A stretch of DNA of 57,013 nucleotides from a virus. Its lineage: Duplodnaviria; Caudoviricetes. The translations under genes and the position numbers were made by a program. The stretch is taken from IMG/VR virus record IMGVR_UViG_3300033148_007689, positions 1 to 57,013 of that record; one strand, given 5' to 3'. Numbering within the stretch: position 1 is the stretch's first letter; every line of letters starts with the position of its first letter. Of the stretch, positions 1,077 through 54,064 are shown piece after piece. The notes under the pieces are model-generated. The model was not told where the DNA came from, did not search any database, and saw nothing but the letters and a program-made list of their open reading frames with translations.

Positions 1077-1085
1077 CAGATTCTA

Positions 1086-1118
1086 TGTGGTTGGAGCAAC
1101 AATACTGCTCCAACCGCA
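1086..1118 (+). terminator. Strong hairpin after tail tube gene (attenuator or mRNA stabiliser)
   Basis: TGTGGTTGGAGCA / TGCTCCAACCGCA 13-bp stem. Confidence 0.55.
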
Positions 1119-1130
1119 CAATAAACAGAG

Positions 1131-1367: not shown

Positions 1368-1719
1368 GGAGCAAATACTGTTCCCAGAAGCTAAGGTTGG
1401 TGATATAACAATCAAGCCTTGGTCTTTTGGAAAGTTGTTTGATCTATCTGTCTTACTGGAGCGTGTGCTTGATAAGGTAGAGGAGAAGAAAATAGACTTC
1501 AACTTTGAGAGTAATATAATCCCCTATTCTACCATAGCAAGATTGTTTACTATTGCTAGCCCAGAAGTTCTTAAGATAATCTCTATTACACTAAATAAGA
1601 GTGAAGAAGAGGTTAAAGAGTTGGGTATGGTAGAGGGTATAAGAATAGCAATGGTAATCTATCAACAGAACTCCGAGATCATAAAAAACGGGCTCAGTCC
1701 TCTTCTGAACCTAGCATAG
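1282..1719 (+). CDS. Tail assembly chaperone (gpG-like)
   Basis: Between tail tube and TMP; slippery heptamer near the 3' end. Confidence 0.75.
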   Translation: MSEDKISQEVPQVENQKKPQTGDTKKKSEEQILFPEAKVGDITIKPWSFGKLFDLSVLLERVLDKVEEKKIDFNFESNIIPYSTIARLFTIASPEVLKIISITLNKSEEEVKELGMVEGIRIAMVIYQQNSEIIKNGLSPLLNLA

Positions 1720-2120
1720 ATGAGAAGAGGACGAAGAAGCAGAAGAAGTTAACCCTCAGTGAGATATTCCAGACCTTAGTTGACCACAATCACTCTATTG
1801 ATGATATAATCCACACTTATACTGTAGACCAAGTCTATCTGTTTTACGAGCAATGCAAAAAGAGGGAGATGGACTCAGATAAAATGAATGCGATCATCCT
1901 AGCAAACGCATTGGTCTATACTTCTCCAAGTAGTGACAAAAATGCTATGAGATCAAAACAGCAGACATGGAATAACTTTCTAAAAATATTAGACTGGGAC
2001 AGCAAAACAAAAACTGAAAAGAAAAACAAGATGACAAATCCAGTTGTTTCTTTGCAGAGGTTGGGTATACCTGTAATGGGGGAGCTGCCTAAAAAAGAGA
2101 AAGATGTTAATAAGGAGTAA
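1683..2120 (+). CDS. -1 frameshift extension of tail chaperone (gpT-like; includes ORF 1869-2120)
   Basis: A-AAA-AAC at 1683-1689; the -1 frame is open from there to 2120. Confidence 0.8.
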   Translation, partial: KKRAQSSSEPSIDEKRTKKQKKLTLSEIFQTLVDHNHSIDDIIHTYTVDQVYLFYEQCKKREMDSDKMNAIILANALVYTSPSSDKNAMRSKQQTWNNFLKILDWDSKTKTEKKNKMTNPVVSLQRLGIPVMGELPKKEKDVNKE

Positions 2121-2376
2121 AGTCGTGGCAGAAGATACTTTTAAAGATGGACTAGAAATAAAATTATCTATAATAGATAAAAATGGAAAAGGTTTTTATT
2201 GTGGTAGACGATTTGCTTTTCAATCGGATGAACTTCCAATGTCTAACGAAATGAGAGAAAAACTCATAAAAGAAATGATAATACAAGCTGCTCAAGGAAT
2301 AATTCAAAGTAAAGATAAAATAATGGATAGTGTGAGAAAAGAAGGATTAACATTTTATAAGGAGATGAACAAGTAA
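2104..2376 (+). CDS. Hypothetical protein, paralog of 33019-33372
   Basis: Shares FQSDExPMS..AAQGI..KIMDSVRxEGLT. Confidence 0.7.
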   Translation: MLIRSKVVAEDTFKDGLEIKLSIIDKNGKGFYCGRRFAFQSDELPMSNEMREKLIKEMIIQAAQGIIQSKDKIMDSVRKEGLTFYKEMNK

Positions 2377-2378
2377 AT

Positions 2379-5300: not shown

Positions 5301-6314
5301 AAAATAGGAAATGCTGAAGCAATTGAAATTTTAAAGTTAGAAAAAGATAGACTAGACATAAGACTAAAAGATCTTGACATTGTAGAAGAGCTTGTAAAAA
5401 AAGATGCTGATGCTGTTGATAGAATACATAATAAAAGAAGACGAATAGAAATAGAAATCACAGAAAACCTTGAAAAACAAAGACGAGCTATGCATCCCCT
5501 TTATGATGCATACAAAAAAATAGAAGCTTCAGTTAAATCAGTTAACGAATTCATCTCTGATATAACTGTCCAGACAGCACGAGGCATAGCTGGAGGTCTA
5601 ACAGATATAGTATATGATCTAACTGGTGGCTTTCAAGAACAACAGCAAGAAGCTGAAAATCTTAAAGGTAGGCTCGCAGAATTAAATAAAGAGTATAATA
5701 ATCTTTTTGAAGAAGATGAGGGAAGAGCAAAAGAGATCACAGAGGAAATGGCTAGATTAAGAAAAGAAATTGATGATCTAGAAGACCCAATCCATAATCT
5801 TAAAGAGGCATTCAAGGACTTTTTTAAAGATTTAATTGATCAAATCCGTAAAGCAATTATACAGTGGATAGCTCTAAGAGCTGTACAAGCAGGTATGAGC
5901 TGGGCTGGATTTAATATAGGTGGTAATGCAGGTGGAGTTTCCCCAGGAGATTTGGGGTATGCAAACTGGGGAGGTTGGACTCTTCCAAAGAAAACTGGAG
6001 GAATACTCCCCGAGATAAAAGCTTTCAAGCAATTCTCTAGTGGGGGTATAACTTCTAGACCAACATTGTTAGCATTAGCTGGGGATAACAAATCTGGCAG
6101 AGAACTAATAATCCCTGAAGAGAATATTAAGTCTGATGAAGTATCAGGCTATGTTAGAGAAGGTGGAGGAGATATTTATATAGGTAATTTTATAACGGAA
6201 GGGGATTTATTAGCTGCCACTGCAGGAGCTAATGGAAAAAGAGTAGTTATAAATCATGTTTTGGAGGATATTGATAATCAAGGCCCTGTGTGGCAAAGGA
6301 TAGGGGGCAGATGA
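2379..6314 (+). CDS. Tail tape measure protein (1311 aa)
   Basis: Long helical, Ala/Lys/Glu-rich; TP901-type core (LGSAGL..GGRAGRSL); FSSGG C-terminal motif; synteny. Confidence 0.9.
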   Translation: MAVSIGGIQIGVGVDVSHLLDGFNAAKANIETFRKDIAKIRVEGLVKGDPFSATRKHLSKTREAINDVFKSWATAMKDTTKDINKFAALSKKSTEKIMKDWAKLGGKRKIELASELTTFANLKEKFGFGEVAGRAPKGGRAMWQWFSSADISELNKYIQKWKRATPEVAKALQDFSNRFTSGIKTSKKNAEAEFKKLYNTLKGARQRVVNEYKGFGEDLRKAQLRQTRIEWAAKGAEARSPEALMKRRREALLKLTVAYRRYYLEREKGYNVEAMNEAIGKNLLARQRWGAKLTKEQTKELKRYNKELAKQKAGEYLFSKQWMLNRARWFVQLRLFWSIYRNTIEAIKDLVDYQYQLARAMRTAQSETMTTTRVTEAYADAMKSAVVIHGVGWKDVGEALYQLGSAGLTAEESLAALDSTMSLIVGTEGDVRDVTKAVAGIYNNFADTITHVNTIQEKFQYINNVIAATWKSHQVEIEELTMGYKRASMMADKVGVNFLELTSMLGVLNDHMIKGGRAGRSLVSVWSRMSRGIHEFSREFNIAIDPNKPLDFMDIMTRLSAKLSKGKTSVFEVAAAFERLGLRGAPTFITLIKNWDEVSEAMADISRDSDALAKNEETLLDTISGRWKQFLGGLRVYVTEAEGIISYLKDVLKEGADWFESKHMQRVEQRLIGLAKTRPLGAVNIATGKPNQFLRDEIRLLSVREKIALKEDAILYSREGGWGWTKKEIEYWKAILEILDDIEIATKKKKKEEATTLKITETLAEKKVRMADTNLAIEERILIAEELLAKATQKVEDREADLNRERAKAIPIYANIVGNAKLLEEAMKERIALERTLARLRKEWSGPATKQTIESLQMQKEDLDYENKQLQAESDRYALKGVTSDEEEKMLAISKRQYEIAVKQLELELRISRIKGEGVLETGKKALRGVEEARAAKLLRDEKIHNQAIAELKRQQTIETNKLLIAKDKEISLAKIGNAEAIEILKLEKDRLDIRLKDLDIVEELVKKDADAVDRIHNKRRRIEIEITENLEKQRRAMHPLYDAYKKIEASVKSVNEFISDITVQTARGIAGGLTDIVYDLTGGFQEQQQEAENLKGRLAELNKEYNNLFEEDEGRAKEITEEMARLRKEIDDLEDPIHNLKEAFKDFFKDLIDQIRKAIIQWIALRAVQAGMSWAGFNIGGNAGGVSPGDLGYANWGGWTLPKKTGGILPEIKAFKQFSSGGITSRPTLLALAGDNKSGRELIIPEENIKSDEVSGYVREGGGDIYIGNFITEGDLLAATAGANGKRVVINHVLEDIDNQGPVWQRIGGR

Positions 6315-6996: not shown

Positions 6997-7698
6997 ATGG
7001 CATATGATGTAACAGCCACATTCCAGGCGGAACAAGTAAAGCTTGAAAATACCTTCGTAATTAATATGTACGTCATTAATGCTAGTCAGAGTGGTCATGA
7101 TTTTTTATATTATTGGAATGGCAACCAAGATATATATGGTTTCCAACTCAACTCTAATGGCAGTGTTACTGCAACAGAACAAGTATATATTGGACTCCCC
7201 ATTAGCCAAGATTCTCTAAAAACCAATATCTCTGGGGAGATCCCCCAACTGTCAATTTCTATACCTAATACTGATAGAACAGTTGAAGCTGTTATCCAAA
7301 ATAATGATTATCTGCGAGGTAGAGAAATACATGTTTTAACCTGCTTTGCTAAGCATCTTCCTTCTGGAGCTACAGCTAAGCATATAGGGAGTTCACCAGA
7401 TCACAATGCTGTTTTAAAAGAAAAGATGTACATTGACTCTACCACGAGCAATGAACAAGCTGTTACTTTTATATGTAAACCTAAATTTAATATAAAGAAT
7501 ATTATAGTTCCGGGTAGAAAATTTAGTAGAGAATGTGCGTGGAATTATTTGGGAACGGAATGTGATCCTGACGGTAATATTAATGCTGAAGCATTCCCCA
7601 CATGTGATGGTACACTGAAACAATGCAGGGAAAGAGGAAATACCTACAGATTTGGGGGGTGGCCTTCTATCCCCCAAAAAGCAATTATAGTCGCATGA
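6997..7698 (+). CDS. Minor tail protein, lambda gpL-like
   Basis: C-terminal C-x-W-x-Y..C..C..C..RFGGWP Fe-S-type motif. Confidence 0.8.
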   Translation: MAYDVTATFQAEQVKLENTFVINMYVINASQSGHDFLYYWNGNQDIYGFQLNSNGSVTATEQVYIGLPISQDSLKTNISGEIPQLSISIPNTDRTVEAVIQNNDYLRGREIHVLTCFAKHLPSGATAKHIGSSPDHNAVLKEKMYIDSTTSNEQAVTFICKPKFNIKNIIVPGRKFSRECAWNYLGTECDPDGNINAEAFPTCDGTLKQCRERGNTYRFGGWPSIPQKAIIVA

Positions 7699-7761
7699 TA
7701 ATTAAAAAAGGTATAGAATTGTGAAATGGACAAAAGAAGAAGCTAATGCGGGGGGAACATA

Positions 7762-8181
7762 ATGGCCCAATTTGACCGCTATATAGGTATACCCTACCAA
7801 AATCTTGGCAGATCCTTCTCTGGAGTCGACTGTTTCGGTCTTTTTTTTTTAGTGTATAAAAATGAACTTGGAATTACACTTCCTGATTTCACTGAACTCC
7901 AATACCCCCAAGATTGGTACAAAAATAGTGGAAACTATATCTTAGATAATATATGGGGAGATTGGGTAGAAGTAAATCCTCCTTATCAAATATTTGATGC
8001 TCTATTATTTTATAACTCCTCACGAAGAGTAGTTGTCAACCATATAGGGGTATACATAAATGATGATAAATTTCTCCATATAATGGAAGGTACTACTTCA
8101 CAGATAAGTCGGTTAACAGGTTATTGGGAAAGCAAACTATATAAAGGACTAAGATTAAAGGATGCCCAAAGTAACATTTAA
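7762..8181 (+). CDS. NlpC/P60 tail-associated peptidase (gpK-like)
   Basis: YIGIPY, GVDCFGL, HIGVY, FLH motifs. Confidence 0.9.
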   Translation: MAQFDRYIGIPYQNLGRSFSGVDCFGLFFLVYKNELGITLPDFTELQYPQDWYKNSGNYILDNIWGDWVEVNPPYQIFDALLFYNSSRRVVVNHIGVYINDDKFLHIMEGTTSQISRLTGYWESKLYKGLRLKDAQSNI

Positions 8182-11100
8182 AAATTTACTTGATGATAAA
8201 TCTAAATTCAGAGAAATCAGTAAGAGAAATCTCCTCTCTGCAGTCTATGAATATGCCAGAACTAGCTCAGACTCTGAGATTTACCATACCATTCTTAATC
8301 AAAAGATCACTATATCAGTAAATAATAAAGTCATCCACCCAGACAACTGGCATATGTTTGAGTTAAAGAAAAAAGATAAAGTCATTATAACCCCTACTTT
8401 AGAAGGAGGAACTAGCGGGGGTTGGCTCCAGATAGGGATAGGGGCAGCTTTAATGACTCTTGCTGTAGCAAATCCTGCTTGGTTGCCTTTTGCTGCCAAA
8501 TACGTATTTGCAACAGGTGCAGCATTGGCTCTTGGTGGTGTATCTCAATTATTATTTACACCAGATCTCCCATCTATGCCTTCAATAAGCGGAGATAAAC
8601 AGACCCAGACATATAATTGGTCCGGTGTAAAGACCGTAGCAAAAGCTGACTCCCCTATACCTATAGTATATGGAACACATCCGGTAGGAGGAAACATAGT
8701 ATCTATATTCACCGAGAGTTATGGAGAAGATAGCTATTTATGTATGCTATTAGCTCTTTGTGAAGGAGAAATTGATGGTATATGCCAAGAGGCTGACCAT
8801 ACACAAGTATGTTCGACATCTAATCAAAGTCTAAGAGACACTACCTATAAAGACCCAGCAATAAAGATAGATGACCAACCACTTAGAGTATATAATGATG
8901 TAGAATGGTGGTATAGGAAAGGTACTAACACTAGAACAGCAGAGAGTAATTATGATCCATATGACCCAACTGTTCAAAATAAAATACCACACTTTGATGG
9001 AGCAAGAATTCAATTTGATGATGGCAGAGAGTTAACCGTTGATGGAATTAAATATACAACTACCAAAGAAGTTGATATGGTTACTGTTAATGTTAGAGCT
9101 CCAGCATTATTTGACTCCTCTGGAGGAAATATTGTCTCAGCAACTGCTAGCTATAAAATAGAATTTTGGAATGATTCAGAAACAGAAGAAAATGCTCATG
9201 CCTATGCTATTAAAAAATGGTCTCCGTCTGTTAGTGGTACTAGAGATGGAGGTACAATGGCAGATGCCAGTAGCTATTGTATTTGTACCACATATAGAGA
9301 GGATGAATATAAATATGGAGATATTCAAGACCCAACATATACTGTTAAAATATTGAATAATAACTTTAGAAATTTTACAGAGGGAGAACGAAGAGTAGAA
9401 TATACAATAAATATAGAAATATATGATAGTTCAAGTAATTTAATAGAATCAAAATCTATAACCCAGTCTATGAGCAGAACAGCATATTATAAGAGCTCTA
9501 CAGAAGAGGAGGGGGGCTGTGGCCATTATGTATACGGAGAAACAACACACAGTTATACACAATTTCTAGTTAATGATTACTTGGTTAAACTTACACATAA
9601 TGTAGCTGCTAATGATATATTTACAATATCCTCAGTTCAATCTGGTGATACTGAAAGTTTACATCTTACAGGTAAAACAAAAACTGGAAAAGGAAATTCT
9701 ATAACAATTAACTTCTTAGACGAAGGCACTACTGGTGCAAATGGAAAAGATGTATATACAATTAAACTTTCTAGAACTGATGACGGTAAATCGTCCTCTA
9801 TGTTGAAAGAAAATAACTTGATTCTGAAATCAGTTGTAGAAGTAGTTCAGGGGGAGTTTATTTATCCTAATACTGCCCTATTAGGATTAAGAATAAAAGC
9901 TACTGGACAATTATCTGGTAGCCCGCCTAATGTAGTTACATTAGTAAGAGGAACCAAAATCCCTGTACCAGATTTAAGTGGTACTGATGAAGCTTTTGAT
10001 GATCATTTTTGGAGTGTTGATAATAATAGATGGGAATATGATGGGGAAGCAAGAACATGGGATGGTTCATCCTGGACTACAGAATATTCAAACAACGCCA
10101 TGTTGTGTGTTAGGGATTTAATGCTTAATACAAGATATGGTCTTGGAAGGTATATTAATAGTACCGATTTATATTCTACAGGAATTACCACCGCTATTAA
10201 AGAATGTCATAAAGAGTATGATCCAACAGAACCAGATCATTTAGATTGGTGGGATGAAGGTGGAGACACATTTGATAAAAATATTAGATCTCTTGGTACT
10301 TCATCTTCTGAAAATATAAGTATAGATAATAGCGCAAAGACAATAACTTTTAGTGGTGCATGGTTATATTCCTTCTATATTAAATTATCTGCTCCTTTAA
10401 TTATAGATAGAGAATATACATTTAGTATTACACTTAGTAGTCTATCCTCAAATTGCACTGTGGGTTTTAGAATAAGTCCTGACCAAATAACAAAACACTT
10501 CACCTATGTTGGAGCTTCCTCAAATAAAGGAGATGGGACTCATTCCTTTACTTGGACATGCACTCATAGTGAACTAAGCCTCTTAAAACTTACAGTAGAA
10601 AGATATGCAGGCTCATCAACTAATCTTTCAGGAGTAATTGAAGATATATCTATTACAGACACTAGTAACAAGCTACATTATCACACATGGAACGGTGTAT
10701 TAGAAAGTGGACAGTCTGCGCCCACAGCTCTAATAGAAATATGTGATTCATTCAGATGTTGGCCTGTATGGTACAATGGGCAATTTAACTTCGTTATTGA
10801 TACAGATGATACCCCAATCCATACTTTAACAACTAGTAATATGACAAGTTTCTCACAATCTTTTTCTCCTATTTCAGAGATACCTTATAAGTTAATAGGT
10901 CAGTATACCGATGAAGATACTAATTATGATATGAGATCACTTATAGCAAGATCAACTTCTACTACCCTCACTAAATTAAACGAAAGAACAGTAGGTTTAA
11001 AAGGTATAACCAATAGAAGGAAAGCTGAGAGAGAATTAGTATGGAAATTAAATAAAGTAACAAATTGCACACATATGATAAACTTCAAATGTGGTTTAGA

Positions 11101-24555: not shown

Positions 24556-25653
24556 CTAGGCTGAGGCCAGAGCTCTCGTCTCCACAGGCTTAGCTTTGGG
24601 CAAACCCTGCCCTAGTATGTTAATTGCGGCATTCAAATCTCTATCGAGAGTTAAACCACAATCACATTTATAAACTCTCTGATGTAAAGGCATGTCCTGT
24701 ATCTTCCCACACTTAGAACACATTTTTGAACTAGGGAAGAATCTATCAATGACCCTTACTTCCTCACATTTACTGGCTAAGAATTGTTTTATTTTGTAAA
24801 AGTTAGCTCTTGAAACAGCTTTACTTAAATGTCTGTTTTTCTGCATTCCCTTTACATTCAAATCCTCAAGTACAACAGTATGATAGTTGTTAGCTATGTA
24901 GTGTGTCATTTTATGTATGTAGTCATCTATCACACATTTAATCTTATAGTGAAGTTTAGCTATCCTCAATCTTGCTTTGGCTCTGTTCTTACTACCCTTC
25001 TTCTTACGGGATAAACTCTTTTGAGCACGTCTGAGCTGTTTATCATATTTGTAGTATGTTTTCGGATTCTCGAAAACAGTCCCGTCAGAGAGTGTGGCTA
25101 GTGTCTTTATCCCCAAATCAATCCCGACAGCGCCTGAAACTTGGTTCTCGCTTTCAGTCTTGTCAGTTTCAACTGATATAGAAACAAACCACTTACCTGC
25201 TCTCTGCTTAATTGTAGCTGACATTAACTTGCCTGTAAACCTCAGCTCCTCAGTCATTCGTACCCATCCGAGTCTCGGTATTCTTATCTTCTTACCATCA
25301 ACAACAAATTTGCTGTTATCCACTGTAAAAGATTCGTGAATACCTTTTTTATGAAACTTGGGATACTTACTTCTCTTTCTAAAGAAGTTTATAAATGCCC
25401 TGTTGAGGTTTTCAAAAGCTGCATCAACCACACATTTTGTCACTTCCATAACAAAAGGAAACTCGGCTCTTTTAATAGTTGTAAACTCCTTCTTAAGCTC
25501 CCTGCTGTTTGGTTTATTTCCCTTCTCATATTCTTCTTTCCATCTAGCAAGCCCCCAGTTATAGACAAACCGTTGAACGCCACAGGCTTTCTGTAAATAT
25601 GTAGCCCGTTTATTGTTTGGCCTTAGCTGCATAACATGTGAGCGTATTTTCAT
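24556..25653 (-). mobile_element. tnpB: TnpB RNA-guided nuclease, apparently intact, no transposase nearby
   Basis: GIDLG, VLEDL, SSKMCSKCG..CDCG..DRDLNAAINI. Confidence 0.92.
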
Positions 25654-25946: not shown

Positions 25947-26156
25947 TTAATACAGTCCATCATCTTCTGTCACCTCAATTTTTAGATCTCCTTTACCAAA
26001 CTTATTGTATATCTTCACTCTTCTTCTTTTGAAACCTTTTACTCCAATCAACATGCTAATTAGTCTTTCACCACCCACAGGATCCCCGCTAGTATGCGCA
26101 CCATACCAAGTTTTCAACCACTTCTCTTTCTTAGATGCTGGTATTGTTATAATCAT
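25947..26156 (-). CDS. Hypothetical protein
   Basis: ORF coupled to the nrdJ stop (TAATG). Confidence 0.55.
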   Translation of the reverse strand: MIITIPASKKEKWLKTWYGAHTSGDPVGGERLISMLIGVKGFKRRRVKIYNKFGKGDLKIEVTEDDGLY

Positions 26157-29100
26157 TATATGTCACATACCCCTGATCTGCAAGACACATCTTTTTCAGA
26201 TAAAGAATCAGAGACTCCTTTTTCATCCTTAATGTATTTCTCTATCTCTTTTCTAGACATCCTATAATATACTTGCTTCTCTCTGCTCTCATCTCTATAG
26301 ACTGTTACCCCTTTAAGATCGTAAATGTACTCTAATAATATTTTACTTAAATCTTCTGCTGTTGAAGATTTAGGCAACAAGATAGTCTTTGATACACTCC
26401 CATCCAAATATTTAGCTATAGTGGATTGCATTTCTAAATGTTCTTCTGGTTTTAAATCATAACTATCTACAAACCATTCACTATCATAATGTTCTTTACA
26501 CAGTGGGTGTATATAAATTCTATCACTAACACGATCTGATCTTAAGTACCCTTTAAAGGGTAAGGGCTCTATACCACCAACAACATCAGCCAATAATGAA
26601 GTTGTATTATGAGTGATAAAACCATTAGCTATATAAGTATGTGAATCTTCATATATTTCGAGATCATTTACATGCATATTATCATACACATTCGTTTCTG
26701 ATACTACATCAAAACATAAATCATTTTTAACAAACCAATTCATACTATCTATCCTCGAAATATAATTTGCTTTAGTAGTACAGATTACATTATTATTAGA
26801 TGAAAACCTATCCTTTGTATATGAAAGATGCTGACTATTAAAATGCATTAATTCATCTGGAGTTAGTATGATCAATTCCCTATCTCCATTTTTTGGTAAA
26901 GACACGTCAATATTATACAATAATTTCAACAATTTTACCGAGTTATATCTGTTTACAGAAATTCTATAGGCTTTACCTCTGGCAAACACTTCTCTACCTT
27001 CAATAATAGAATTGTTTTCCTTTGTTTCTTTTAAATGAGATACAAATCCAAGACCCAACAATATAGTTTGTATTTGATTGGCCATTGTTTCTGAAATAGT
27101 AGTAAATCCTATACGGTTATCTTCCTTTCTTATATGACCATTGCCTCTGTGGTAACCGCTTATAAAAGAAATTATATTGTTTAATGAACCGCTTAATATT
27201 ATATCAGGAATAAAAGCATTTATAGCTCCATATTTTATACATCCATGTTTTTGAAACCAATCATATAATTGTTTATTGCCAATCTCTAATCTCACAGATT
27301 TACTATCTAATCTATCACGTTTATATACTTTGATTTTAAACACATCCCCAAAAGACTTATATATCAAATTTGATATATATTCTGCTTCATTATTATTAGA
27401 AGTCTCAAAATATAATCTATGACTTCTTCCATTTACAGTCCACCAACCATCTGCCATATAATATCCTAATAATTCAGCTTTATGATCAGATAACCATGTT
27501 TGTCTCTTGTCGTACAGAAACCCTTTCTTCAACACAACTAAATCTCCTTTTTCTATATCACCCAAAGATTTCCAACTATACCCGTTCCCATCAGTTAATA
27601 CCCTCACTTTATGATCAAACGTTCCTTGAAGCTTATAACCATGTTTAGTTTTTATACTTTTAGTTTTAGCGATCCCCTGATCATAATATGCTTTTATATG
27701 TACATCCTTAAAATCTGATTTAGTAGAATTTCTTCCTCTACCAACTCTTAAATTAATCTTTTTATAATCTTCAATTCTTTTAGTACCAATCTCTGATGAT
27801 ATAAGAGTACCATCTACCAAACAACCCGTCGGAGCTGCTGTAGTCAACGTTACGTTACGAATTGAGTTTTCTTTTATGAGCATCCTTATTTTAGCAGGTA
27901 ATTTTCTAACAAAAGAGGCACTAGCATAATCTATTCTATTATATTTTGGGAATGCCCCTTTTTCTTTTGCTAGTTCCACAGAGGCTATGTAAGCTTCATC
28001 TCTGATAAATCTATATAATTTTTCTACTTCCGCAATGGCTCGTTCTGAACCATATCTTATCTCTTTCATAAAAAGATAGTCTGCAAGACCCATTGTACCG
28101 AGCCCGATCCTGCGAGCATTTTTAACAACTATTTCTTGTTGTGGGATTGGGTAGTAAGCTAGATCAATTACGTTGTCCATAAATCTTACAGCTATTTTAA
28201 TAGTCCTAGATAGTTTTTTCCAGTCAGTGTTTTTATTTATAATAAAATGTGGTAACACAAGAGCGCCCAGATTACAACATCCAAACTCTTCGAGCGGCAG
28301 TTCACCGCACTGTAAGTTGTTGATATAATTGAACTTTTTCTTTCCGTTCTCTGTCTTGCTCTCACTAACCATAACATAAAAATTATGAAATTCGTCCACT
28401 GTCCCATTGTATACATCTTCATATCCATCTTCTTCTATAGATACTATATTATAATTCATCATTCGATGCTTATATCCTTTTTCCATTGCGTACTTAACTT
28501 GACCAAGAAAAGCAGCCTTAGAAGTACCTGCACATCTAGTAGAACAATATGACTGTTCTCTCCTATGCCACTTGACAGAGAAAATTCTTCCACAATTCTC
28601 ACATTGCTTATTTACCCAAATACTACCGTTCTCAAAAAAAACATCAAGATCAGTTGTATCTTTAAGAACAAGAAACTTCCTATATGCTTTTAACTCGTAC
28701 CCTTTCATATATACTCCCGCTTCTTTAGCGGCAGCTTTAAGCATTGAACTAGCACTTTTATATTTTCCAAAAGCACAATTAGACCAAGGTATACTATTTG
28801 TTTTGCAGTACTTCTGCCACTCATCCTTGGTTACTTTCCTTCCTATATTTCTCATTAAATCAATGGCTATTTGGAATATTTCTTCTGGTGTAAGTCCCGT
28901 CCACCTACCGTTATTTTTACCCGACCAATTTTGTTTAATAAGCCAGTTTTTCTCAGGAAACCTATTCACTGGGTTATTCCTACCAAGCATATCTTGTGCA
29001 TGTAATTTATCATGATCTTTTTTTAACATAGGTTCAAGATTTACCCATTCATTATTAAGACCATTAAAATCATTATGATGCACTATTTCACCAGGTTTCA

Positions 29101-30304
29101 ACTTACGACCCAAATTAAACTCTGCAATAATTCTGTGTTCTGCTTTATTTGTAGATTTACCAACATTCCACCACACATAATCTTGTGATCTACTATTCGC
29201 CCTAAGAAATACATCTTTAAATGATGCATGAAATTTAACTGCGTGATGAAGCCTATCATTTTCTTTTAATTCGTCAGCCCGCTTATAAGTACCATCAAGC
29301 ATAAGGATCCCATGATTTTCAGTACATCTAATTATAGACCCATCATTAAGGGTTATCTTCAAAATTCTTTCTTTATACCCAGTGATTCTAGGGTTTCTCA
29401 TTAAACGTACAGTAACATTATTATTACTATCACTACAAAATACTGGCACATCTTTACCTTCATCAGCCAATTGTTTTATAGGAACATTGCCCCTACCGTC
29501 TGCTACAGCCACTAAAGTATTTCCCGTCACGCAAGGATTGACCCCCCGAATTGGACTGAAATAATATGAATTATTCTTTCTCAAATTGTCCCAATTTATC
29601 AAACCTGGCTCACTATGCTCCAACATATTATTAAGAATCATATCCCACAATTCTCTTGCTCTTACTGTTTCATATACTTTACCAGCAAATTTAAGATCCC
29701 ACTCATTGTCCTCTTCTACCGCTTTTAAAAAACCTGAATCTACAATTACTGAAATATTAAATTGTGTTAATTTATTGTGCTTTATTTTAGCATTAATAAA
29801 TTCTCTGATTTCAGGATGAGAGATATGGCACAAGGCAATCCCCGCACTTCTTCTCGCCCCACCAGTTTCTATTCTTTTCCCAGCATGATTAAATATTTCC
29901 ATAAAGGAAACTAGTCCTGAACTATTACCGCCTTTTGTAATAAGAGGAGCACCTTTAGGTCTCAAAGCAGAAAAATCTATCCCATTCCCACCACCATATG
30001 AAGAAATAATTAAATAATTCTTGAGTGTTTCTCCTATAGATTCAATACTATCTTCCAGAGGTAGAAAATTACAATTACTTGTAGATGGTCTCAGTTTACC
30101 AAGATTCCTTAGAATTCTTCCTGCAGGTATAAAATCCAAAGGTTCTATAATAGAGTAAAACTCCCCATAATACTTCTCTGCTTTGTCTCCTTCATTCTTA
30201 GCATTCTCTCTACATATTCTTTCTGCTAGGTGATCCCATTTAGTTTCATTGTCCCAGAAATATCTGCTCTCAGCTATCTTCTGGGCATTAGCGCTTAATT
30301 CCAT
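26156..30304 (-). CDS. nrdJ: Class II (B12-dependent) ribonucleotide reductase with two inteins
   Basis: PAGRIL, SNC, NPCGE (split by intein), CNLG, RRIGLG, APTGT (split by intein), SVSKT, KGVTVYR; likely start MELS at 30304. Confidence 0.92.
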   Translation of the reverse strand: MELSANAQKIAESRYFWDNETKWDHLAERICRENAKNEGDKAEKYYGEFYSIIEPLDFIPAGRILRNLGKLRPSTSNCNFLPLEDSIESIGETLKNYLIISSYGGGNGIDFSALRPKGAPLITKGGNSSGLVSFMEIFNHAGKRIETGGARRSAGIALCHISHPEIREFINAKIKHNKLTQFNISVIVDSGFLKAVEEDNEWDLKFAGKVYETVRARELWDMILNNMLEHSEPGLINWDNLRKNNSYYFSPIRGVNPCVTGNTLVAVADGRGNVPIKQLADEGKDVPVFCSDSNNNVTVRLMRNPRITGYKERILKITLNDGSIIRCTENHGILMLDGTYKRADELKENDRLHHAVKFHASFKDVFLRANSRSQDYVWWNVGKSTNKAEHRIIAEFNLGRKLKPGEIVHHNDFNGLNNEWVNLEPMLKKDHDKLHAQDMLGRNNPVNRFPEKNWLIKQNWSGKNNGRWTGLTPEEIFQIAIDLMRNIGRKVTKDEWQKYCKTNSIPWSNCAFGKYKSASSMLKAAAKEAGVYMKGYELKAYRKFLVLKDTTDLDVFFENGSIWVNKQCENCGRIFSVKWHRREQSYCSTRCAGTSKAAFLGQVKYAMEKGYKHRMMNYNIVSIEEDGYEDVYNGTVDEFHNFYVMVSESKTENGKKKFNYINNLQCGELPLEEFGCCNLGALVLPHFIINKNTDWKKLSRTIKIAVRFMDNVIDLAYYPIPQQEIVVKNARRIGLGTMGLADYLFMKEIRYGSERAIAEVEKLYRFIRDEAYIASVELAKEKGAFPKYNRIDYASASFVRKLPAKIRMLIKENSIRNVTLTTAAPTGCLVDGTLISSEIGTKRIEDYKKINLRVGRGRNSTKSDFKDVHIKAYYDQGIAKTKSIKTKHGYKLQGTFDHKVRVLTDGNGYSWKSLGDIEKGDLVVLKKGFLYDKRQTWLSDHKAELLGYYMADGWWTVNGRSHRLYFETSNNNEAEYISNLIYKSFGDVFKIKVYKRDRLDSKSVRLEIGNKQLYDWFQKHGCIKYGAINAFIPDIILSGSLNNIISFISGYHRGNGHIRKEDNRIGFTTISETMANQIQTILLGLGFVSHLKETKENNSIIEGREVFARGKAYRISVNRYNSVKLLKLLYNIDVSLPKNGDRELIILTPDELMHFNSQHLSYTKDRFSSNNNVICTTKANYISRIDSMNWFVKNDLCFDVVSETNVYDNMHVNDLEIYEDSHTYIANGFITHNTTSLLADVVGGIEPLPFKGYLRSDRVSDRIYIHPLCKEHYDSEWFVDSYDLKPEEHLEMQSTIAKYLDGSVSKTILLPKSSTAEDLSKILLEYIYDLKGVTVYRDESREKQVYYRMSRKEIEKYIKDEKGVSDSLSEKDVSCRSGVCDI
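26606..27823 (-). mobile_element. Intein 2 in NrdJ (406 aa, LAGLIDADG-type)
   Basis: APTG|CLVDGT...LLGYYMADG..FISGYHRGNG...NGFITHN|TTS. Confidence 0.9.
28310..29533 (-). mobile_element. Intein 1 in NrdJ (408 aa, HNH endonuclease, C-terminal Gln)
   Basis: NP|CVTGNT...VYNGTVDEFHNF...NNLQ|CGE; HRIIAE..VHHNDFNGLNN HNH. Confidence 0.9.
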
Positions 30305-30325
30305 CCTTCTCCTCCTCCTTCTCAT

Positions 30326-43751: not shown

Positions 43752-44531
43752 CTAAGAAAACAACCTTTGCTGAGCCAGACGTTTTTTGGCTATTTCACAG
43801 TAGGGTTCTGATAATTCTATACCTATCCATCTTCTGCCTAATTTCTCACAGGCAGCTGCTGTCGTACCCGAACCTAGAAACGGATCAAGAATTAAATCAT
43901 CTTGCCAAGTATAAAGTTTTGTCAATCTGTAAGGTAATTCCTCTGGGAAAGGAGCAGGATGGATTCTGCTGCGTTCTGGGGCAAAATACCAGCAATTTGT
44001 GGTAAATTTCATAAATTCTTCTATAGAAATATCATTTTGTCCTTTCTTATCTATTCTCTTATGATTTTTCTTATCCATTATAATAATAAATTCTGAGGCA
44101 TCTCTTAAATAGGGACAACTTGGGCTTCGCCAACTCCCCCAAGCAGTAGACCTCCCAGGGGGTTGAAAGTTAGGGGCTTTTACCCAACTAATCCATTCTC
44201 TGTCTATAAAACCAATTTCTCTCATTATCAAAACATAATCTAAGGTTAAATATGCCATTCTCGATTTAGAACTTTGAAGAATAGAGCTTAGTAAATTTAT
44301 GCTCATACGTCCCCCATTTATCAAAACTCTATAGCACTCAATTAAAACTTCTTTCATAAAAGAAAGATATTCTTTATAATTCCTTCTATCATTAGTTCCA
44401 TAATTCATTCCAACATTATAAGGGGGAGAAGTAATGATACAATCTATACTTTCATCAGGAATATCCTTCATTACTTCCAGACAATCTCCACAGAAAAGCT
44501 TTCCCAACCTGGTCTCAAAGTAAGGCTTCAT
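43752..44531 (-). CDS. DNA N4-cytosine-type methyltransferase (SPPY)
   Basis: [22 protein letters not shown]. Confidence 0.9.
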
Positions 44532-44551
44532 ATCATTTCCTCATATTTTCA

Positions 44552-45574
44552 TCACTCTTTTCCTTCATAAAATTCTGGATACCTATCAAACCTTAACTCA
44601 GAATGCTTCTCCAAAAAGGATTCAATCTCAAACTCATTTACTTTTTCTTTGTCTTTATAAATTAAAGTATGAGACTTCATAGTTTTAAACTCCTGCTTGT
44701 TCTTAGGTACTAGATAATTTCTATCTGCTAACAATCTTGCATACCCACCATAATAGGGAACTCCACTCTCATAGAAAAAAGGAACATAGCAATTTCGGTA
44801 GCATGGACCAAGTCTTGTTTTTATGACCTCAATACCCAACCAACTACCTATAACTTCGTTGCCTTTTTTCTCATCTATTATCTTTCTTTTATCCTCTAAT
44901 GCAAATCTAACCGTGTTAAAATACTTAAGTCCTTCCCCACCACTAGCTCGTTTAGGATCTCCGAAACTTACACCTACAGCATAATAAAAGTGGTTAACTA
45001 TTAGGACCATTACCTTATCATCTATATATCCCAACAACTTTCTCAGACCATCTTTAGTGCTCTTTTGTTTTCTTCCAGAATCTGACTTCTCTAAGTCTAC
45101 ATCTTTATCAAAAGCTGATATTGAATCTATTATTACTACTATATGTCTATCTTCATCCTGAGCACGTATTACCTCTATGGAATCTAGGATAAAAGAAAAA
45201 GCATCTGAAACTAATAAGACATCTTTAGGAAGAGCTCTGATAACCTTATCTGTATCTATACCTAATTCCCTAGCTCGCTTATCCATAAAAGCTTTTTCTC
45301 TATCTACTACTATACCAATAGCTCCATACTTTTTTTGAGCATTGGCCAAAATGATCTGGCAAAAAAGGCTCTTGCCAGATTGAGAAAAACCAATGAACTC
45401 AACACTTGAACCAAAAGGAACTCCTCCGTCTGCAATTAAATCAAATGCTAAATTCCCTGTAGAGACCATTTCTAGTTTTTCCTCTTCGTTGGAAGAAGAA
45501 ACAATTGATACTCCAGAATATTTCTTCTTTAGAAGTTCTGTTACTTTAGATAAATTAATCTCTTTATTAGTCAT
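44552..45574 (-). CDS. RecA/UvsX-like recombinase
   Basis: STGN..GGVP..GFSQSGKS, IIDSI, SGGEGLKY. Confidence 0.88.
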   Translation of the reverse strand: MTNKEINLSKVTELLKKKYSGVSIVSSSNEEEKLEMVSTGNLAFDLIADGGVPFGSSVEFIGFSQSGKSLFCQIILANAQKKYGAIGIVVDREKAFMDKRARELGIDTDKVIRALPKDVLLVSDAFSFILDSIEVIRAQDEDRHIVVIIDSISAFDKDVDLEKSDSGRKQKSTKDGLRKLLGYIDDKVMVLIVNHFYYAVGVSFGDPKRASGGEGLKYFNTVRFALEDKRKIIDEKKGNEVIGSWLGIEVIKTRLGPCYRNCYVPFFYESGVPYYGGYARLLADRNYLVPKNKQEFKTMKSHTLIYKDKEKVNEFEIESFLEKHSELRFDRYPEFYEGKE

Positions 45575-45643
45575 ATTGTCCCCCCGAAAGCCAACCTTTA
45601 TATTCTCATGTTCTTACTGCTTTCCCTACATTCTCTTCTACCA

Positions 45644-46054
45644 TTATTTGTTATCTGGCTCATTTGGACTATTAGATCGCCATTTTCCAATCAAAATATC
45701 CTGAGCCTTAGCGATTTGATCTTCATTGAAAAATTGCAATAACAACTTTCTTATTTCGCTATATTTCATTTTCTCTGTTTTTTTACAATTCCACATTGAA
45801 AAACTAAGCAACTCAACACACAATCTCAAAGGATATTCTATTTCTGATAGCGTCCTTGATTGATTGTATAATAGTTCTGTTTCTTCTCTACTGAGTACAC
45901 GGTCGAATGTTTGAACATCTTGGAAAGCCTGATTTACATCTACATAGGTTAACTTACCATCAATGTAAAGCTTGTTATTGACAATTTGAACACCATGGAA
46001 TTTACCATCTTCAAAAAAACACTGTGCAATTTCGTTAAAGTTTTTTAGCCACAT
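45644..46054 (-). CDS. Hypothetical protein sharing a C-terminal domain with 55419-55802
   Basis: EIxYPxRLC..FSxW..KKTE..EIxKxLLxFF. Confidence 0.65.
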   Translation of the reverse strand: MWLKNFNEIAQCFFEDGKFHGVQIVNNKLYIDGKLTYVDVNQAFQDVQTFDRVLSREETELLYNQSRTLSEIEYPLRLCVELLSFSMWNCKKTEKMKYSEIRKLLLQFFNEDQIAKAQDILIGKWRSNSPNEPDNK

Positions 46055-46074
46055 ATTATTTCTCCTTCTTTAAA

Positions 46075-46136
46075 GTATAACATATTGGCTGATCTGCAGT
46101 GGCCTTTTGCCATCAGAGTCAAGTAGCTGATCAGAG
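46075..46136 (-). other. attC-like site (degenerate R'')
   Basis: ..CTGATGGCAAAAGGCCACTGCAGATCAGCCAATAT-GTTATAC; overlaps the stop of 46131-46322. Confidence 0.5.
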
Positions 46137-46322
46137 CTCTTTCAATATTTTTGCAAACTCGTTTTTAGCTACTTTTTCGTATTTCTTAGCCCACTCTTTA
46201 CCGTTCTCTCCCCAGAAATCTCGAAAGCCAATGATAAATTCAAACATCTTGCCTCTTGCAAATGCTTCTCTCACCATTTCTTTTACTACCAGTTCAGTAA
46301 TATCTGTAGTGTTATTAGCCAT
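46131..46322 (-). CDS. Cassette-like hypothetical ORF
   Basis: Bounded by attC-like sites. Confidence 0.55.
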   Translation of the reverse strand: MANNTTDITELVVKEMVREAFARGKMFEFIIGFRDFWGENGKEWAKKYEKVAKNEFAKILKEL

Positions 46323-46370
46323 ATTTATTCAAACCCCTAGTGAACAGCCTTTTACACTTTGCCGTAAGAC

Positions 46371-46427
46371 ATTTAACGTTAAGTTCAGCGGGAGGCTTTT
46401 GTGCTCTGCTAAAACGACTTGTTATAT
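46371..46427 (-). other. attC-like recombination site (57 bp)
   Basis: ATATAAC-AAGTCGTTTTAGCAGA..CCGCTGAACTTAAC-GTTAAAT; upstream gene stop lies in R''. Confidence 0.75.
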
Positions 46428-46682
46428 CTTTCTCCATCCCTTGTCAGTTACCTGATATTTTGTGCCATCCGACATTTCCACAATATCACCATTATCGTGG
46501 AGATTTAGCGCAACGAGTTGTTTTGTTTTCTTTGCTATGGCCGACATCTTTTTCTGGGGGGTCATCGACAGATTTTCCAAAAGAACATTTTTTCTGTCCA
46601 TGACTACTATTTTTTCACCAAATGCCTTTTTTATTGCTTCAACCGTCTCTTCATTCATTGGCTTTTCAAATTGCATACTCAT
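46422..46682 (-). CDS. Cassette-like hypothetical ORF (MSMQFEK...)
   Basis: SD AGGAG just after R' GTTATAC; TAA within the next R''. Confidence 0.65.
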   Translation of the reverse strand: MSMQFEKPMNEETVEAIKKAFGEKIVVMDRKNVLLENLSMTPQKKMSAIAKKTKQLVALNLHDNGDIVEMSDGTKYQVTDKGWRKI

Positions 46683-46703
46683 ATCTTTTCTCCTTTGTCT
46701 AGA

Positions 46704-46837
46704 GTATAACATTTAGGGCAACTTGCGAGAAATAAATGACTCCCACCCTAATTAAGACGCCCCCCAATTACTTATTTTGATACCTTCATTTCTATTGCCA
46801 TCATTTATTTCTCATCAAGCTTACCCATTTGCTATGC
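46704..46837 (-). other. Long attC-like site
   Basis: GCATAGC..GAGAAATAAATGA/TCATTTATTTCTC stem..GTTATAC. Confidence 0.6.
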
Positions 46838-47462
46838 GTGTCCAGGTCGCTCATATCTAATTGTTATCAATTATTAAGATGCGCTCCTCCGGCTGGTACA
46901 CACCAATATGCCCTCGATGCACACATAACGATTATGGCTAACCTGCTGTGAGAAGGGGACAGAACCCCCCCTACTCGGCTCACGAACCTTCATATATGCT
47001 CTAGGTAATCCTGAACCCCACAGGTTCCCACAGTCAATTCTATCAGGTGTGCCAATAAATATGGCTCATACGTCCTCGACACTGGAGGATTGCCACTATA
47101 GCCTGCCATGCCTCCATGCGACCGTATCCTTTCCTCTGAACTGGGATAACTACAGTTTTCCACCCAGACCTCCATCATTTATCGGCACACTTAACAGTCA
47201 TAGTTTTATCTATCTCAATTTCTCTGTTTTAATTGATTTACTCCGAAATCTCTGTTGATAATTATAGTTAGGTGCTCCCTTGTTTTTATCACCCACTCCA
47301 TCGGTTGACATGTTTTTTCTTTTTGTATTAGCTGCCCTGCACCACTGACATAGGAATATGGGATATTTCTTTCCTTTCCAGCTGTATTCACCAACCACTT
47401 TTACTTCTCGTTTCTTATTGCAGTTAAAACAATATCGTATCATAGAGAACCCCTTCCTAACC

Positions 47463-48044
47463 TTAAGCAAAAGTTTTATTCTCTGCAAGCAATTTTAAGC
47501 TTTCTCGTATATCCCTCCCATCAATGTCATATCCTATTGCATCCCAGCCCTCTCGCATTTGCCTTGCAAATATATCAACTTTATTTTCAGCTAAGGATTC
47601 TACCATCTCATAAAATTTATCTGGTTTTTGGGAATGCTTAATATTTGGTGCTGAAAAGGCCAAAGGGATTAGTGGTCGCCTCGGCCATAAATCAGGTTTT
47701 CTCTTATACCCAACCAATATAAATTCAACATTCCACCTGAAACCAAATAATGGCATCCCAGCAGATTTACCATATGTTTTTTCCCATACACCTGTAGCAA
47801 GGTAACTAAAGCCCCACGCTTCTGCTATCTCTTTTGCATCAAAAAGAAACTTTTGTGTAGTCCATAGGAATAGCCAACAATTATTATCAGCAATATTATT
47901 TATGGGTAAAGACTTAATCTCTTGTATGCTCATAGTCTCATAATCCATTGTTACCTGTTTTGACCTTGCCTTACGTGTAAGTTTCTTTACCTGCCAGGGT
48001 GGATCAACAACAATTAGCCCATATTTTTTTAGTGGTTCACTCAT
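47463..48044 (-). CDS. MT-A70-family DNA methyltransferase
   Basis: IVVDPPW, LFLWTT, HSQKP, DIFAR. Confidence 0.88.
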   Translation of the reverse strand: MSEPLKKYGLIVVDPPWQVKKLTRKARSKQVTMDYETMSIQEIKSLPINNIADNNCWLFLWTTQKFLFDAKEIAEAWGFSYLATGVWEKTYGKSAGMPLFGFRWNVEFILVGYKRKPDLWPRRPLIPLAFSAPNIKHSQKPDKFYEMVESLAENKVDIFARQMREGWDAIGYDIDGRDIRESLKLLAENKTFA

Positions 48045-48755
48045 TTCTTTCCTCTTGCTTTAATTTATTCATCACCTCAATTACCTGGCGATCCACTTCC
48101 ATAGACACAGCGTAGATATCTGCTACAAGCCCAACCTTGCTTTTCCTCTGTTTAGCTTCTTCTAAAATTAGAGTTACTATTTCAGTAATTCTATTCTGAT
48201 TTACAGTCAAGTCTATCATCTCCACATACACTCCCGCATAAGGTCTTGCCACCACTGGATAGTACCTTTCATGCCGTACCAAAGAAAAGCAATAGGCGTA
48301 CCCATGATGGCGACTATGAGGAGAAGAATGTTAAAGATAGTGTTACTAACTTTCTGGTTCATAATTGCTCATTCCCTATCTATTATAGTTTACTTCACGC
48401 AGTGTTCTTAAATATCGAAACCGAATCCTACATAATGGTGTCCATCTATACCCAAATAGGTATAATCTTTCCCAAATAAACCACATTCCTGCCGAAGAAC
48501 TCCACTTCCCTAATCTTGGTAAAATCATTTACACCAATCCCCGCTTAATAGTATAAATTAGCTGAGAGTGATAGTCGCCATGCCTAATTGTAATTCTGAG
48601 ACATTTCCATGCAGTATCATATTTGGCTGGTAGTGTATAGCATTTAGCATGTCTTTCTCGTACACACCAAATAGCCAACCAATATTTTGTCGGCCAAAAG
48701 CGGATGTATAGAGGTAAGAATCGTTTACAGAATTTGTCAAACATTAAGCCTCCTT

Positions 48756-48912
48756 TCAAATATCCAACCTTTGCTGAGCTAAACGTTTTTTTGCTATTTG
48801 GCAATAGGGTTCTGATAATTCTATGCCAATCGCTTTACACCCTAATTTCTTTGCTACAAGAAGAGTCGTACCTGCGCCCATGAATGGATCTAAAACTGTA
48901 CCAGACTCCCAT
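48756..48912 (-). pseudogene. C-terminal fragment of a DNA methyltransferase
   Basis: [36 protein letters not shown], no in-frame start; nearly identical to the tail of 43752-44531. Confidence 0.75.
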
Positions 48913-49128
48913 TTATTTCCTGCTCGTCCATCTCTTATTTACCCCCTATGTAAATCTCTCCTTTAAATTTCTGTTAATATCGCTTATTACTGTTACTACA
49001 CTTGTCCAATCCCTTTTTTCTTCATCGTAATAAATCTTAATCTTCCAAGAATATTCGTTTTTTGCATTTCTATTTATTTCTATACTACTTTGCTTTTCTG
49101 TCTTAATTTCTTCTGCCATAACGTTCTC

Positions 49129-53028: not shown

Positions 53029-54064
53029 TCATGGAACCGGCTGTAAGGCATGAGGACTATAAACTCCCATGTGTGATAAATTAATAGCTGCGTTTAGATC
53101 CGCATCTATTTTATTACCACAAGCACATTCATAAACCTTCCCTTTACGGTTTGATTTACAAATGACTCCGCAATTACAGCATTTCTGGCTTGTATAAGCT
53201 GGGTTGACTTTTGTGAACAAGACACCGGCTTCCTCAGTCATTTGGAGGAGTTTCTGTAAGACCCTTACATAACTCCAACGCTGTAATTTGTTTGTGAATT
53301 TCTTTCGTATTTTCCCTTTACTTTTATGTTTTACATTTTTTAAGTTCTCAACAACCAGTTCACGAATATTAGATAAATCTATTTTATTTAAACTTTGATT
53401 TATAAGATTATTTCTTTCAACCAAAGCCCGTTTAAAGGCTTTACTCCCCTGTTTTTTCCTACTAATCTTTTCATAGATTTGTTCCATGCCATCATCATAA
53501 GATTTATTTTCTGATGTTTTGATAAGCTCTCTGTAACCACAGTCAAGCCCAACAACCCTTCCTTTTTGTTTCAATTCGGGCGTTTTTTTCTCAAAAAGAA
53601 CTTCAATAAACCATTTATTATATTTCTTTATCAAACGTATTGACTTGTTTTGTTTCCAGTCTTTGAATTTATTGAAGTGTTTATGTGTTTTTACTGGAAG
53701 CTTGATCTGAATTCGCTTGCCAATAGAAGACAAACGGATCCATAAATCAAAATATTTCCCATTTTTAAAATCTGTAAACCTTGAGTCAAGAGTAAAAGAG
53801 AATTTTTTAAAAATTGGCCTAGTTTTCTTTCTTCTCTTACGTTGTGATTTAACTATTTCAAGTGCTTGCTTGGCATTGCTGCATTCTTGCTGATAACCAA
53901 GTATCAACTTTGCAGTTAACAAACTTAGAAGAGAAGTCTTTCTGCTCCCAAATTAGATCAATAAAAAGATTAACAACTCTTTGCATTTCAAATGCAATGG
54001 AATCTAATTGGATTAATTTACCTTCATTTGCTTCATTTATAGATAAAATTGATCTTCTAATCAT
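53029..54064 (-). pseudogene. tnpB: Frameshifted TnpB
   Basis: MIRRS..ARMQQC / frameshift near 53870 / AKQALEIVKS..GLDCG..VVENL..YTSQKC..DADLNAAINL. Confidence 0.8.

Follow-up and report, generated by a model that had tools for sequence, protein, structure and literature searches.

Gene cassettes bordered by integron attC sites are rare in phages but have already been reported. In a survey of 10,705 phage genomes, Qi et al. (2023, PMC9892861) report, besides three complete integrons and one In0, 17 attC clusters that have no integron integrase (CALINs), some of these finds being in virulent phages. They also report five methyltransferase cassettes and the recombination of five of six tested phage attC sites by the integrase IntI1. 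Insertion of cassettes by IntI at non-att genomic sites, as described by Loot et al. (bioRxiv 10.1101/2022.09.11.507474), provides a route into phage DNA. Here we describe four candidate attC sites (sites 1 to 4), interspersed with single small open reading frames (ORFs), in an uncultivated tailed phage. The window is the whole of its linear 57,013-base IMG/VR virus record (IMGVR_UViG_3300033148_007689), whose completeness is estimated at 51%. The stretch carrying the sites is bounded by an MT-A70 methylase gene (47463-48044) with a Zn-ribbon ORF (47210-47488) on one side and by a recA/uvsX-like gene (44552-45574) on the other. This stretch is probably a small, partly decayed CALIN-like cluster of integron-type gene cassettes in a record that lacks an integrase.

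The locus shares several characteristics with the phage CALINs of PMC9892861. Its attC-type sites are co-oriented with single small ORFs between them, no integrase lies in the record, the 57 kb of the record carry no signs of lysogeny, and methyltransferase cassettes are found, here in the related contigs G001 and G007. Unlike those clusters, it has a single site that passes an attC model, the rest being decayed or divergent. It further differs in that the presence and absence of a cassette-like segment can be followed among related phages in public sequencing runs, and in its attC type, which has L boxes of the GAC/GTC form and recurs among phages. These last two features and the methyltransferase cassettes of its relatives are what the case adds to published work, and the case enlarges a small body of evidence for exchange between integron cassettes and phages (the 17 CALINs just mentioned). 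That number also makes outdated the view taken in a sequence-only reading of the same DNA that attC clusters are known mainly from cellular replicons and plasmids. Our search of the literature on attC sites in viral contigs found nothing beyond Qi et al. (whose supplementary lists it did not cover), Loot et al. and the work on promoter early stem-loop (PeSL) cassettes.

The PeSL cassettes (PMC2839356) appear to be the closest analogue that phages have of their own. They combine a sigma-70 promoter with an efficient terminator and recombine by sequence likeness. In both cases short conserved stem-loop motifs border small ORFan genes in a variable region of a virulent-type phage, and indels end at the motifs. 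Unlike PeSLs, the motif described here is homologous to integron attC and comes with neither a -35 element nor a terminator-like site (none in 44000-49000, with 2.3 expected). No promoter is listed at the junctions, and a -10-like box (TGnTATACT) is present at only two of them. A first reading of the locus as promoters plus ordinary, PeSL-like hairpins was dropped once the element appeared in integron arrays.

Candidate attC sites in the replication module

All genes of the region, which forms part of the replication module, are carried by the minus strand. The sites, the ORFs between them and one ORF-free segment are as follows, in the order in which the minus strand is read.

46923-46946, minus strand: site 1, the 3' half of an attC-like site, with CAGGTTAGCC, a 6-nt spacer (ATAATC) and the R' box GTTATGT (46929-46923); fold z -0.4
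46710-46928, minus strand: segment C, an ORF-free, cassette-like segment of 219 nt, from the TT at 46928 to the G at 46710, ending with a long hairpin
46704-46837, minus strand: site 2, a long attC-like hairpin, with GCATAGC, a short spacer, GGGTAA-G-CTTG pairing with CAAG-TTGCCC (one extrahelical G), a perfect upper stem of 13-14 bp, a spacer and the R' box GTTATAC (46710-46704)
46422-46682, minus strand: ORF86, the sole gene of cassette 46709-46377, with a TAA stop at 46424-46422
46371-46427, minus strand: site 3, attC-type, with the R'' box ATATAAC (46427-46421, holding the ORF86 stop), a 5-nt spacer (AAGTC), L'' GTT-T-TAG, a weak apical part, L' CTG-AAC and the R' box GTTAAAT (46377-46371)
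46131-46322, minus strand: ORF63, the sole gene of cassette 46376-46081, with a TGA stop at 46133-46131
46075-46136, minus strand: site 4, decayed attC-type, with L boxes of the phage GAC/GTC type that carry two A-C mismatches, the R' box GTTATAC (46081-46075) and a lost R'' box (GATC for the expected TAAC)
45644-46054, minus strand: ORF136, following the R' box of site 4, with seven environmental relatives, all unnamed

Direct reading of the minus strand finds the boxes of all four sites at the positions given for them by the sequence-only reading. Only GTTAAAT of site 3 fits GTTRRRY strictly. That reading had also placed single ORFs between several of the sites, as holds for ORF86, ORF63 and ORF136, and stop codons at R'' boxes, which is the case for the TAA of ORF86 within ATATAAC and for the TGA of ORF63 within the decayed 5' box of the next site. 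Its successive palindromes are correct in part: the stretch 46704-46837 is a real long hairpin, but the other three stretches fold no better than shuffled sequence and the one at 46923 is not a palindrome.

The attC calls rest on two covariance models built here, whose matches and misses are not equivalent to IntegronFinder or HattCI calls. Model R1 was derived from 46 attC sites taken from bacterial and archaeal contigs only, and model R2 from 30 viral sites found with R1. Both were run on the whole record, on both strands and with filters off. Site 3, which had been singled out earlier as near-canonical, is the sole match of R1 in the record below E 1 (27.1 bits, E 8e-5, full model length) and is scored at 35.8 bits (E 3e-7) by R2. 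Because site 3 does not fit the pattern by which the training set was selected, the R1 test is not circular. The full lengths of both models are aligned, GTT-T-TAG pairs with CTG-AAC between spacers of 5 and 5-6 nt, and ATATAAC and GTTAAAT are complementary at six of seven positions. By its boxes and by both models, site 3 is of the attC type.

Significant recognition by these two models is confined to site 3. Site 4, 235 nt away from site 3, gives the second-best R2 match in the record (14.6 bits, E 0.35, eight non-standard pairs), which is not significant alone, and no R1 match at E<=10. Its homology to the phage form of the element is established by a profile comparison with that family (nhmmer E 2e-15) and by blastn matches of 75-82% to sites that score 43-60 bits with R1. 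Sites 1 and 2 have no hit with either model. As a control, R1 was applied to the integron of Shewanella phage M16-3, where it gives its attC sites 9-22 bits at the right intergenic places. Because R1 is poor on divergent but real attC sites, its silence on sites 1 and 2 is no evidence against them. Overall, one of the four sites is significant by model, another is a decayed homologue, and the remaining two are backed by junction evidence and geometry.

Site 2 retains both of its R boxes, with AAC altered to AGC in GCATAGC. Its inverted repeat (I3) is perfect over 13 nt (46727-46739 with 46801-46813), and its DNA fold, in which a single G is extrahelical and the spacers measure 4 and 5 nt, has a z score of -2.2 on both strands. 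On the bottom (plus) strand it reaches -11.2 kcal/mol and is the only site to beat shuffled sequence, as a stable bottom-strand attC hairpin would. Site 4 folds there with -7.0 kcal/mol (z -0.7), and the z scores of sites 1, 3 and 4 range from +0.4 to -0.7. At site 1, which has an R' box only, no matching 5' half was found.

None of the three encoded proteins (ORF86, ORF63, ORF136) belongs to a Pfam or PHROG family. A protein search found 11 relatives of ORF86 (84-92 aa, 51-91% identity), all of them unnamed environmental proteins, and ORF86 had no match in metagenome contigs. No relative of ORF63 was found in viral contigs, and segment C contains no ORF of at least 60 aa.

Relatives of the element in phage contigs and bacterial integrons

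The element recurs in other viral contigs. Among loci collected through their MT-A70 genes, site 3 has a 64-nt blastn match (77%) just upstream of the MT-A70 gene in the viral contig G001, and a wider search matched site 4 in the same contig. Profile searches found eight copies plus the site-3-like one in G001, all on one strand between 24.1 and 34.8 kb, and between one and three copies in each of six further viral contigs. A phage copy opens with a box that ends in TAAC. After 5 nt come GCT-K-GAC, a short stem that is G+C-rich and has a loop rich in A, and GTC-AGC; a further 6 nt lead to GTTA. In six to seven copies the upstream ORF stops at the TAA of the first box. When R1 was applied to 415 kb of viral loci, it found 30 sites at E<=2e-4. 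Denser arrays were seen among these loci, with five sites in 2.8 kb of L198 (11542-14297) and four in 2.6 kb of L117 (140-2726), three of the latter being about 100 nt long.

In G001 (34640-33941, L096) and G007 (3526-4230, L127), attC-type sites stand on either side of the MT-A70 gene, which thereby has the layout of a single-gene cassette. The MT-A70 gene of the record itself, without attC flanks, has 85% DNA identity to that of G001 over 490 nt. Such DNA methyltransferase cassettes in related contigs are plausible anti-restriction genes.

One way to account for the conserved element would be as a coding module, that is, as a C-terminal peptide tail shared by many small phage proteins (its commonest form ends in ...LDSDGKKPPQVS). 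Of 19 copies, 10 are indeed read through by the upstream ORF in one and the same frame and none in the stop-free frame, and several differences between copies fall at third codon positions. However, the copies best conserved in DNA include the out-of-frame ones in L103, L107:1851 and L110, and both copies in the record are out of frame. One-base deletions that alter the whole peptide are paired with compensating changes that keep the helix (GAC-T-CTG/CAG-GTC versus GACTTG/CAAGTC; GAG/CTC versus GAC/GTC), and therefore the folded site is conserved rather than the peptide. ORFs that enter the attC site also fit integron cassettes. With in-frame and out-of-frame copies equally conserved, the peptide-tail reading was rejected, and we give it almost no credence.

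When genome contigs of bacteria and archaea were searched with a gapped pattern derived from the phage copies, 68 sites in 57 stretches matched, and in many cases several of them follow one another at distances of 0.5-1.5 kb. Five genomes with such sites were searched for an integron integrase at the curated cut-off of NCBIfam TIGR02249. In three of them an integrase above this cut-off lies on the site-bearing contig, and the other two have only sub-threshold tyrosine recombinases. The three integrase-bearing contigs, two of them from metagenome-assembled genomes (MAGs), are listed below.

G009:C5 (Puniceicoccaceae MAG), intI at 4918-5847, plus strand: four minus-strand sites at 424-3319, in the classical divergent layout
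G010:C83 (Olavius Delta 3 symbiont), intI at 57823-58764, plus strand: four minus-strand sites upstream of intI
G011:C38 (Desulfobacterales MAG), intI at 7579-8511, plus strand: two plus-strand sites

The alignment of the 46 sites behind R1 excludes duplicates and the phage-like contig L138. In this alignment, many columns of which are fixed by our own search pattern, the structure formed by R boxes, L boxes and stem is paired in 86.4% of cells, compared with 24-41% when the partners are slid. Its covariation score was reached by none of 500 shuffles. The reference sites, bacterial and viral, share GCT-K-GAG/CTC-AGC with spacers of 5 and 6 nt. By these sequence comparisons, the attC type predicted in the record recurs in other uncultivated phage contigs and resembles, in both sequence and structure, the chromosomal integron attC sites of Desulfobacterales, Puniceicoccaceae and other bacteria. 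Integron arrays of sediment and symbiont bacteria share this type.

The sedentary chromosomal integrons of G009, G010 and G011 resemble the phage locus both in the build of the sites (from ..TAAC over 5 nt to GCT-K-GAG, then a stem of variable sequence, CTCAGC, and 6 nt more to GTTA...) and in the single small ORFs that space the sites, with stops in or at the first box. In contrast, the bacterial contigs encode an IntI above the cut-off and the phage record does not, and the bacterial stems are G+C-rich and stable whereas the stem of site 3 is weak. Separately, a 2-kb contig (L138) binned in a Desulfobacteraceae MAG carries a phage-type (GAC/GTC-like) attC variant at 824-882 on the minus strand. 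This variant may hint at the host group; otherwise the bin contains a phage contig.

The occurrence of the element beside IntI also bears on the possibility that the boxes and hairpins are ordinary expression signals. The R' boxes would then be part of an extended -10 promoter (TGTTATACT) before ORF86 and ORF136, the hairpins would be terminators or RNA-processing sites, and the likeness to attC would be due to chance. The TGTTATACT copies at 46703-46711 and 46074-46082 do lie 7-8 nt before a strong ribosome-binding site (AAGGAG), all elements are co-oriented with the genes, and attC sites are thought to contain weak terminators (PMC9892861). However, the motif TGTTATAMT is not enriched in the record (five copies versus 2.15 expected, a count reached by five of 100 shuffles), two of its five copies are intergenic, and the absence of a -35 element and of terminator-like sites has been noted above. 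Chance cannot account for E values of 8e-5 and 3e-7, nor for the same type of element in arrays beside IntI. We therefore regard this explanation as very improbable, although the R' box may add a promoter function.

Searches for relatives of the region as a whole were negative. Among 50,697 phage records, neither megablast nor blastn found anything matching the region, and no syntenic relatives were found through the RecA-like protein or the clamp loader. Nine loci found with MT-A70 have only that gene in common, and 80 loci found with the 391-aa methylase are without synteny. A search of 45500-47600 against Rfam returned three chance-level rows (E 7-9) only.

Gain and loss of DNA between GTTAT boxes

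Parts of the stretch are covered by contigs of three public runs from three studies, X1 to X3 (labelled hydrothermal vent, sediment and hydrothermal vent metagenome), which were aligned at >=80% likeness. No RNA run containing the stretch was listed. Gain or loss of DNA at GTT boxes among related phages had been set beforehand as a test of the cassette interpretation. Record 5 of X1 (357 nt, depth 11, shorter side 156 nt) runs from ORF86 to 46709, continues with 35 letters, and then proceeds from 46967. Compared by eye with 46929-46964, these letters agree in 29 of 36 columns. What the contig lacks is therefore 46710-46928. On the gene strand this DNA begins with the TT of GTTATGT (site 1) and closes with the G of GTTATAC (site 2), so that its two ends lie in the GTTAT boxes. 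Because X1 record 6 and X3 record 14 each extend from segment C into ORF86, forms with and without segment C both exist, and both occur in run X1. The layout of segment C is cassette-like, and its borders suggest an ORF-less cassette. The evidence here extends beyond site prediction, since one phage lineage exists with and without a cassette-like segment whose ends lie inside predicted boxes.

A second junction is seen in X2 record 10, where a site-1-like half site is joined to ATG|TTATAC followed by ORF136, so that segment C and the genes ORF86 and ORF63 are missing in between. This join lies within 2-3 nt of G|TT; it is weak, with 26 nt on one side and a depth of 2.7.

These observations are consistent with the following scheme, from which we infer which enzyme acted, in which direction cassettes moved and whether the sites are active today. 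Each unit would begin at the TT of a G|TTAT box, carry one small ORF or none, and close with an attC site that contributes, as its final base, the G of the box that follows. When an integron-bearing host is infected, the host IntI would fold the attC strand and recombine it at G|TT with another attC site or a secondary GTT site, so that cassettes are inserted into or excised from phage DNA. The attC sites would subsequently decay in the phage, as may be reflected in the different states of site 3 (R and L boxes well kept), site 4 (R'' missing), site 2 (a long divergent hairpin) and site 1 (a 3' half). If host integrases act on infecting phage DNA in this manner, the bacterial cassette pool may supply the 'ORFan' regions of some phages, and transfer might likewise run the other way.

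Several observations weigh against this interpretation. Significance by model is reached at one of the four sites, sites 1 and 2 scoring at most 4.4 bits locally, and the models are tied to one attC type, R1 leaving the sites of phage M16-3 at the 9-22 bits given above. Only four of the 46 sites in R1 come from contigs with a confirmed integrase, and 42 come from other contigs. Counts of G-T versus A-C mismatches at paired columns, leaving out the three outer pairs (9 versus 12 in bacterial sites, 14 versus 8 in viral sites), do not single out one folding strand. The single-stranded DNA fold of site 3 is poor (-3.0 kcal/mol on the bottom strand, z +0.4, and -2.8 kcal/mol, z +0.07), and by this modelling the site may have ceased to be a good substrate. 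No attC site lies downstream of ORF136, and no tyrosine recombinase (PF00589) was matched in the record, whose estimated completeness is 51%.

The junction data also count partly on this side. In X1 the position of the crossover is resolved no further than the 5-nt repeat GTTAT, X1 has an A for the expected G, and a deletion between short direct repeats would look alike. Of the changes predicted at GTT boxes, the absence of the 219 nt between sites 1 and 2 from a relative was observed, but two nearby indels do not end at such a box. One of these (46140-45576) is seen in X1 record 3, which runs from ORF63 through 34 other letters to the start of recA and is without site 4 and ORF136. For the other (47207-48058), an X1 contig joins 47206 to 48059 through six other letters and is without the Zn-ribbon ORF and MT-A70. 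Ordinary gene-boundary mosaicism is therefore also at work in the region.

These last data are relevant to a scenario in which attC-derived repeats, with IntI no longer involved, are now shuffled by general recombination of the phage or its host, pairing alike repeats of 50-60 nt or GTTAT ends. The gene for a UvsX/RecA-like recombinase adjoins the array and SbcCD is also encoded, the junctions are resolved only to five nucleotides, and the two indels away from GTT boxes, the weak fold of site 3 and the lost R'' box of site 4 all fit this scenario. So does the viral contig G002, which is complete with terminal repeats and has two sites and no tyrosine recombinase. Moreover, shuffling mediated by PeSLs is documented for T4-type phages (PMC2839356, PMC4122927). 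However, the four sites of the record are too dissimilar for homologous pairing (sites 3 and 4 share short runs only), and the recombined ends in X1 have only GTTAT in common. In many contigs the R and L boxes are kept with compensatory changes, which points to selection on a folded site and not only on sequence likeness. We consider general recombination the main rival but an unlikely explanation, and continue to favour the reading as integron-type cassettes.

Recombinases and neighbouring features

As the sequence-only reading had stated, there is no integrase in the record: PF00589 has no match there, and IntI next to attI and an array, as in a complete integron, is thus not seen. Among the related viral contigs, PF00589 gave no match in G002, G003-G006 or G008 and identified one recombinase each in G001 (L111:1426-2397, minus strand) and G007 (L112:1456-2403, minus strand). 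These are Xer-like tyrosine recombinases, 43% identical to one another, located 7 kb and 1.5 kb, respectively, from arrays of nine and three attC-type sites. The G001 protein is best matched as XerA/XerD-like and scores 41.9 bits with TIGR02249 (cut-off 265). When aligned with three IntI proteins, both recombinases are found to be without most of the IntI-specific insertion. Judged by these sequence tests, they are not IntI.

The proximity of these enzymes to arrays raises the possibility that certain phage lineages have their own attC-based cassette platform, served by a phage-encoded Xer-like tyrosine recombinase that lacks the IntI-specific domain. The cluster in the record would then be a worn-down outpost that uses attC as a gene border, as a supplier of stop codons and perhaps, via TGTTATACT, as a promoter. 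We hold this idea to be improbable.

Upstream of the four sites on the minus strand lies a further feature of the stretch.

47047-47206, minus strand: module A, 160 nt, ORF-poor and G+C-rich, closed by a 21-nt imperfect helix

The helix (I1) pairs 47040-47060 with 47177-47197, the G+C content is 46-49% compared with about 36%, and the predicted RNA fold of 46713-47215 has a z score of -4.7. Module A matches no Rfam family. It is kept in X1, X2 and X3 in different surroundings, and in X3 record 15 neither of its flanks resembles those seen here. A 20-mer from module A was matched in seven metagenome stretches, all belonging to one unrelated coding gene, and these matches were put down to chance. 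Module A may encode a small RNA or be a mobile module of a different kind. The cassette interpretation does not account for the G+C-rich, ORF-poor stretch 46930-47206, and least of all for module A.

Elsewhere, the record encodes tail proteins (tape-measure, central tail fibre and tail fibre proteins), replication proteins (a DNA polymerase exonuclease subunit, SbcCD, a clamp loader and the UvsX/RecA-like recombinase), a ribonucleotide reductase (RNR) with an HNH insertion, and three DNA methyltransferases. A group I intron (Rfam RF00028; 90.6 bits, E 6e-22) occupies 228-465 on the plus strand, directly upstream of an ORF (618-1076) that at its start resembles a family of major tail proteins, and the tail-protein gene that hosts it may be split. 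The RNR large subunit (26156-30325, minus strand, 1389 aa) has HNH endonuclease matches at residues ~387-650, a part that looks like an intein or an inserted homing endonuclease. Two minus-strand ORFs match PHROG 506 'transposase' (24556-25653, E 4e-116; 53029-53922, E 2e-29), and both look TnpB/IS605-like. A 41-aa ORF (48756-48881, minus strand) duplicates the C-terminal end of the N6_N4 methylase encoded at 43752-44531 and is probably a remnant of another methylase gene; it had tblastn matches in 64 of the loci searched.

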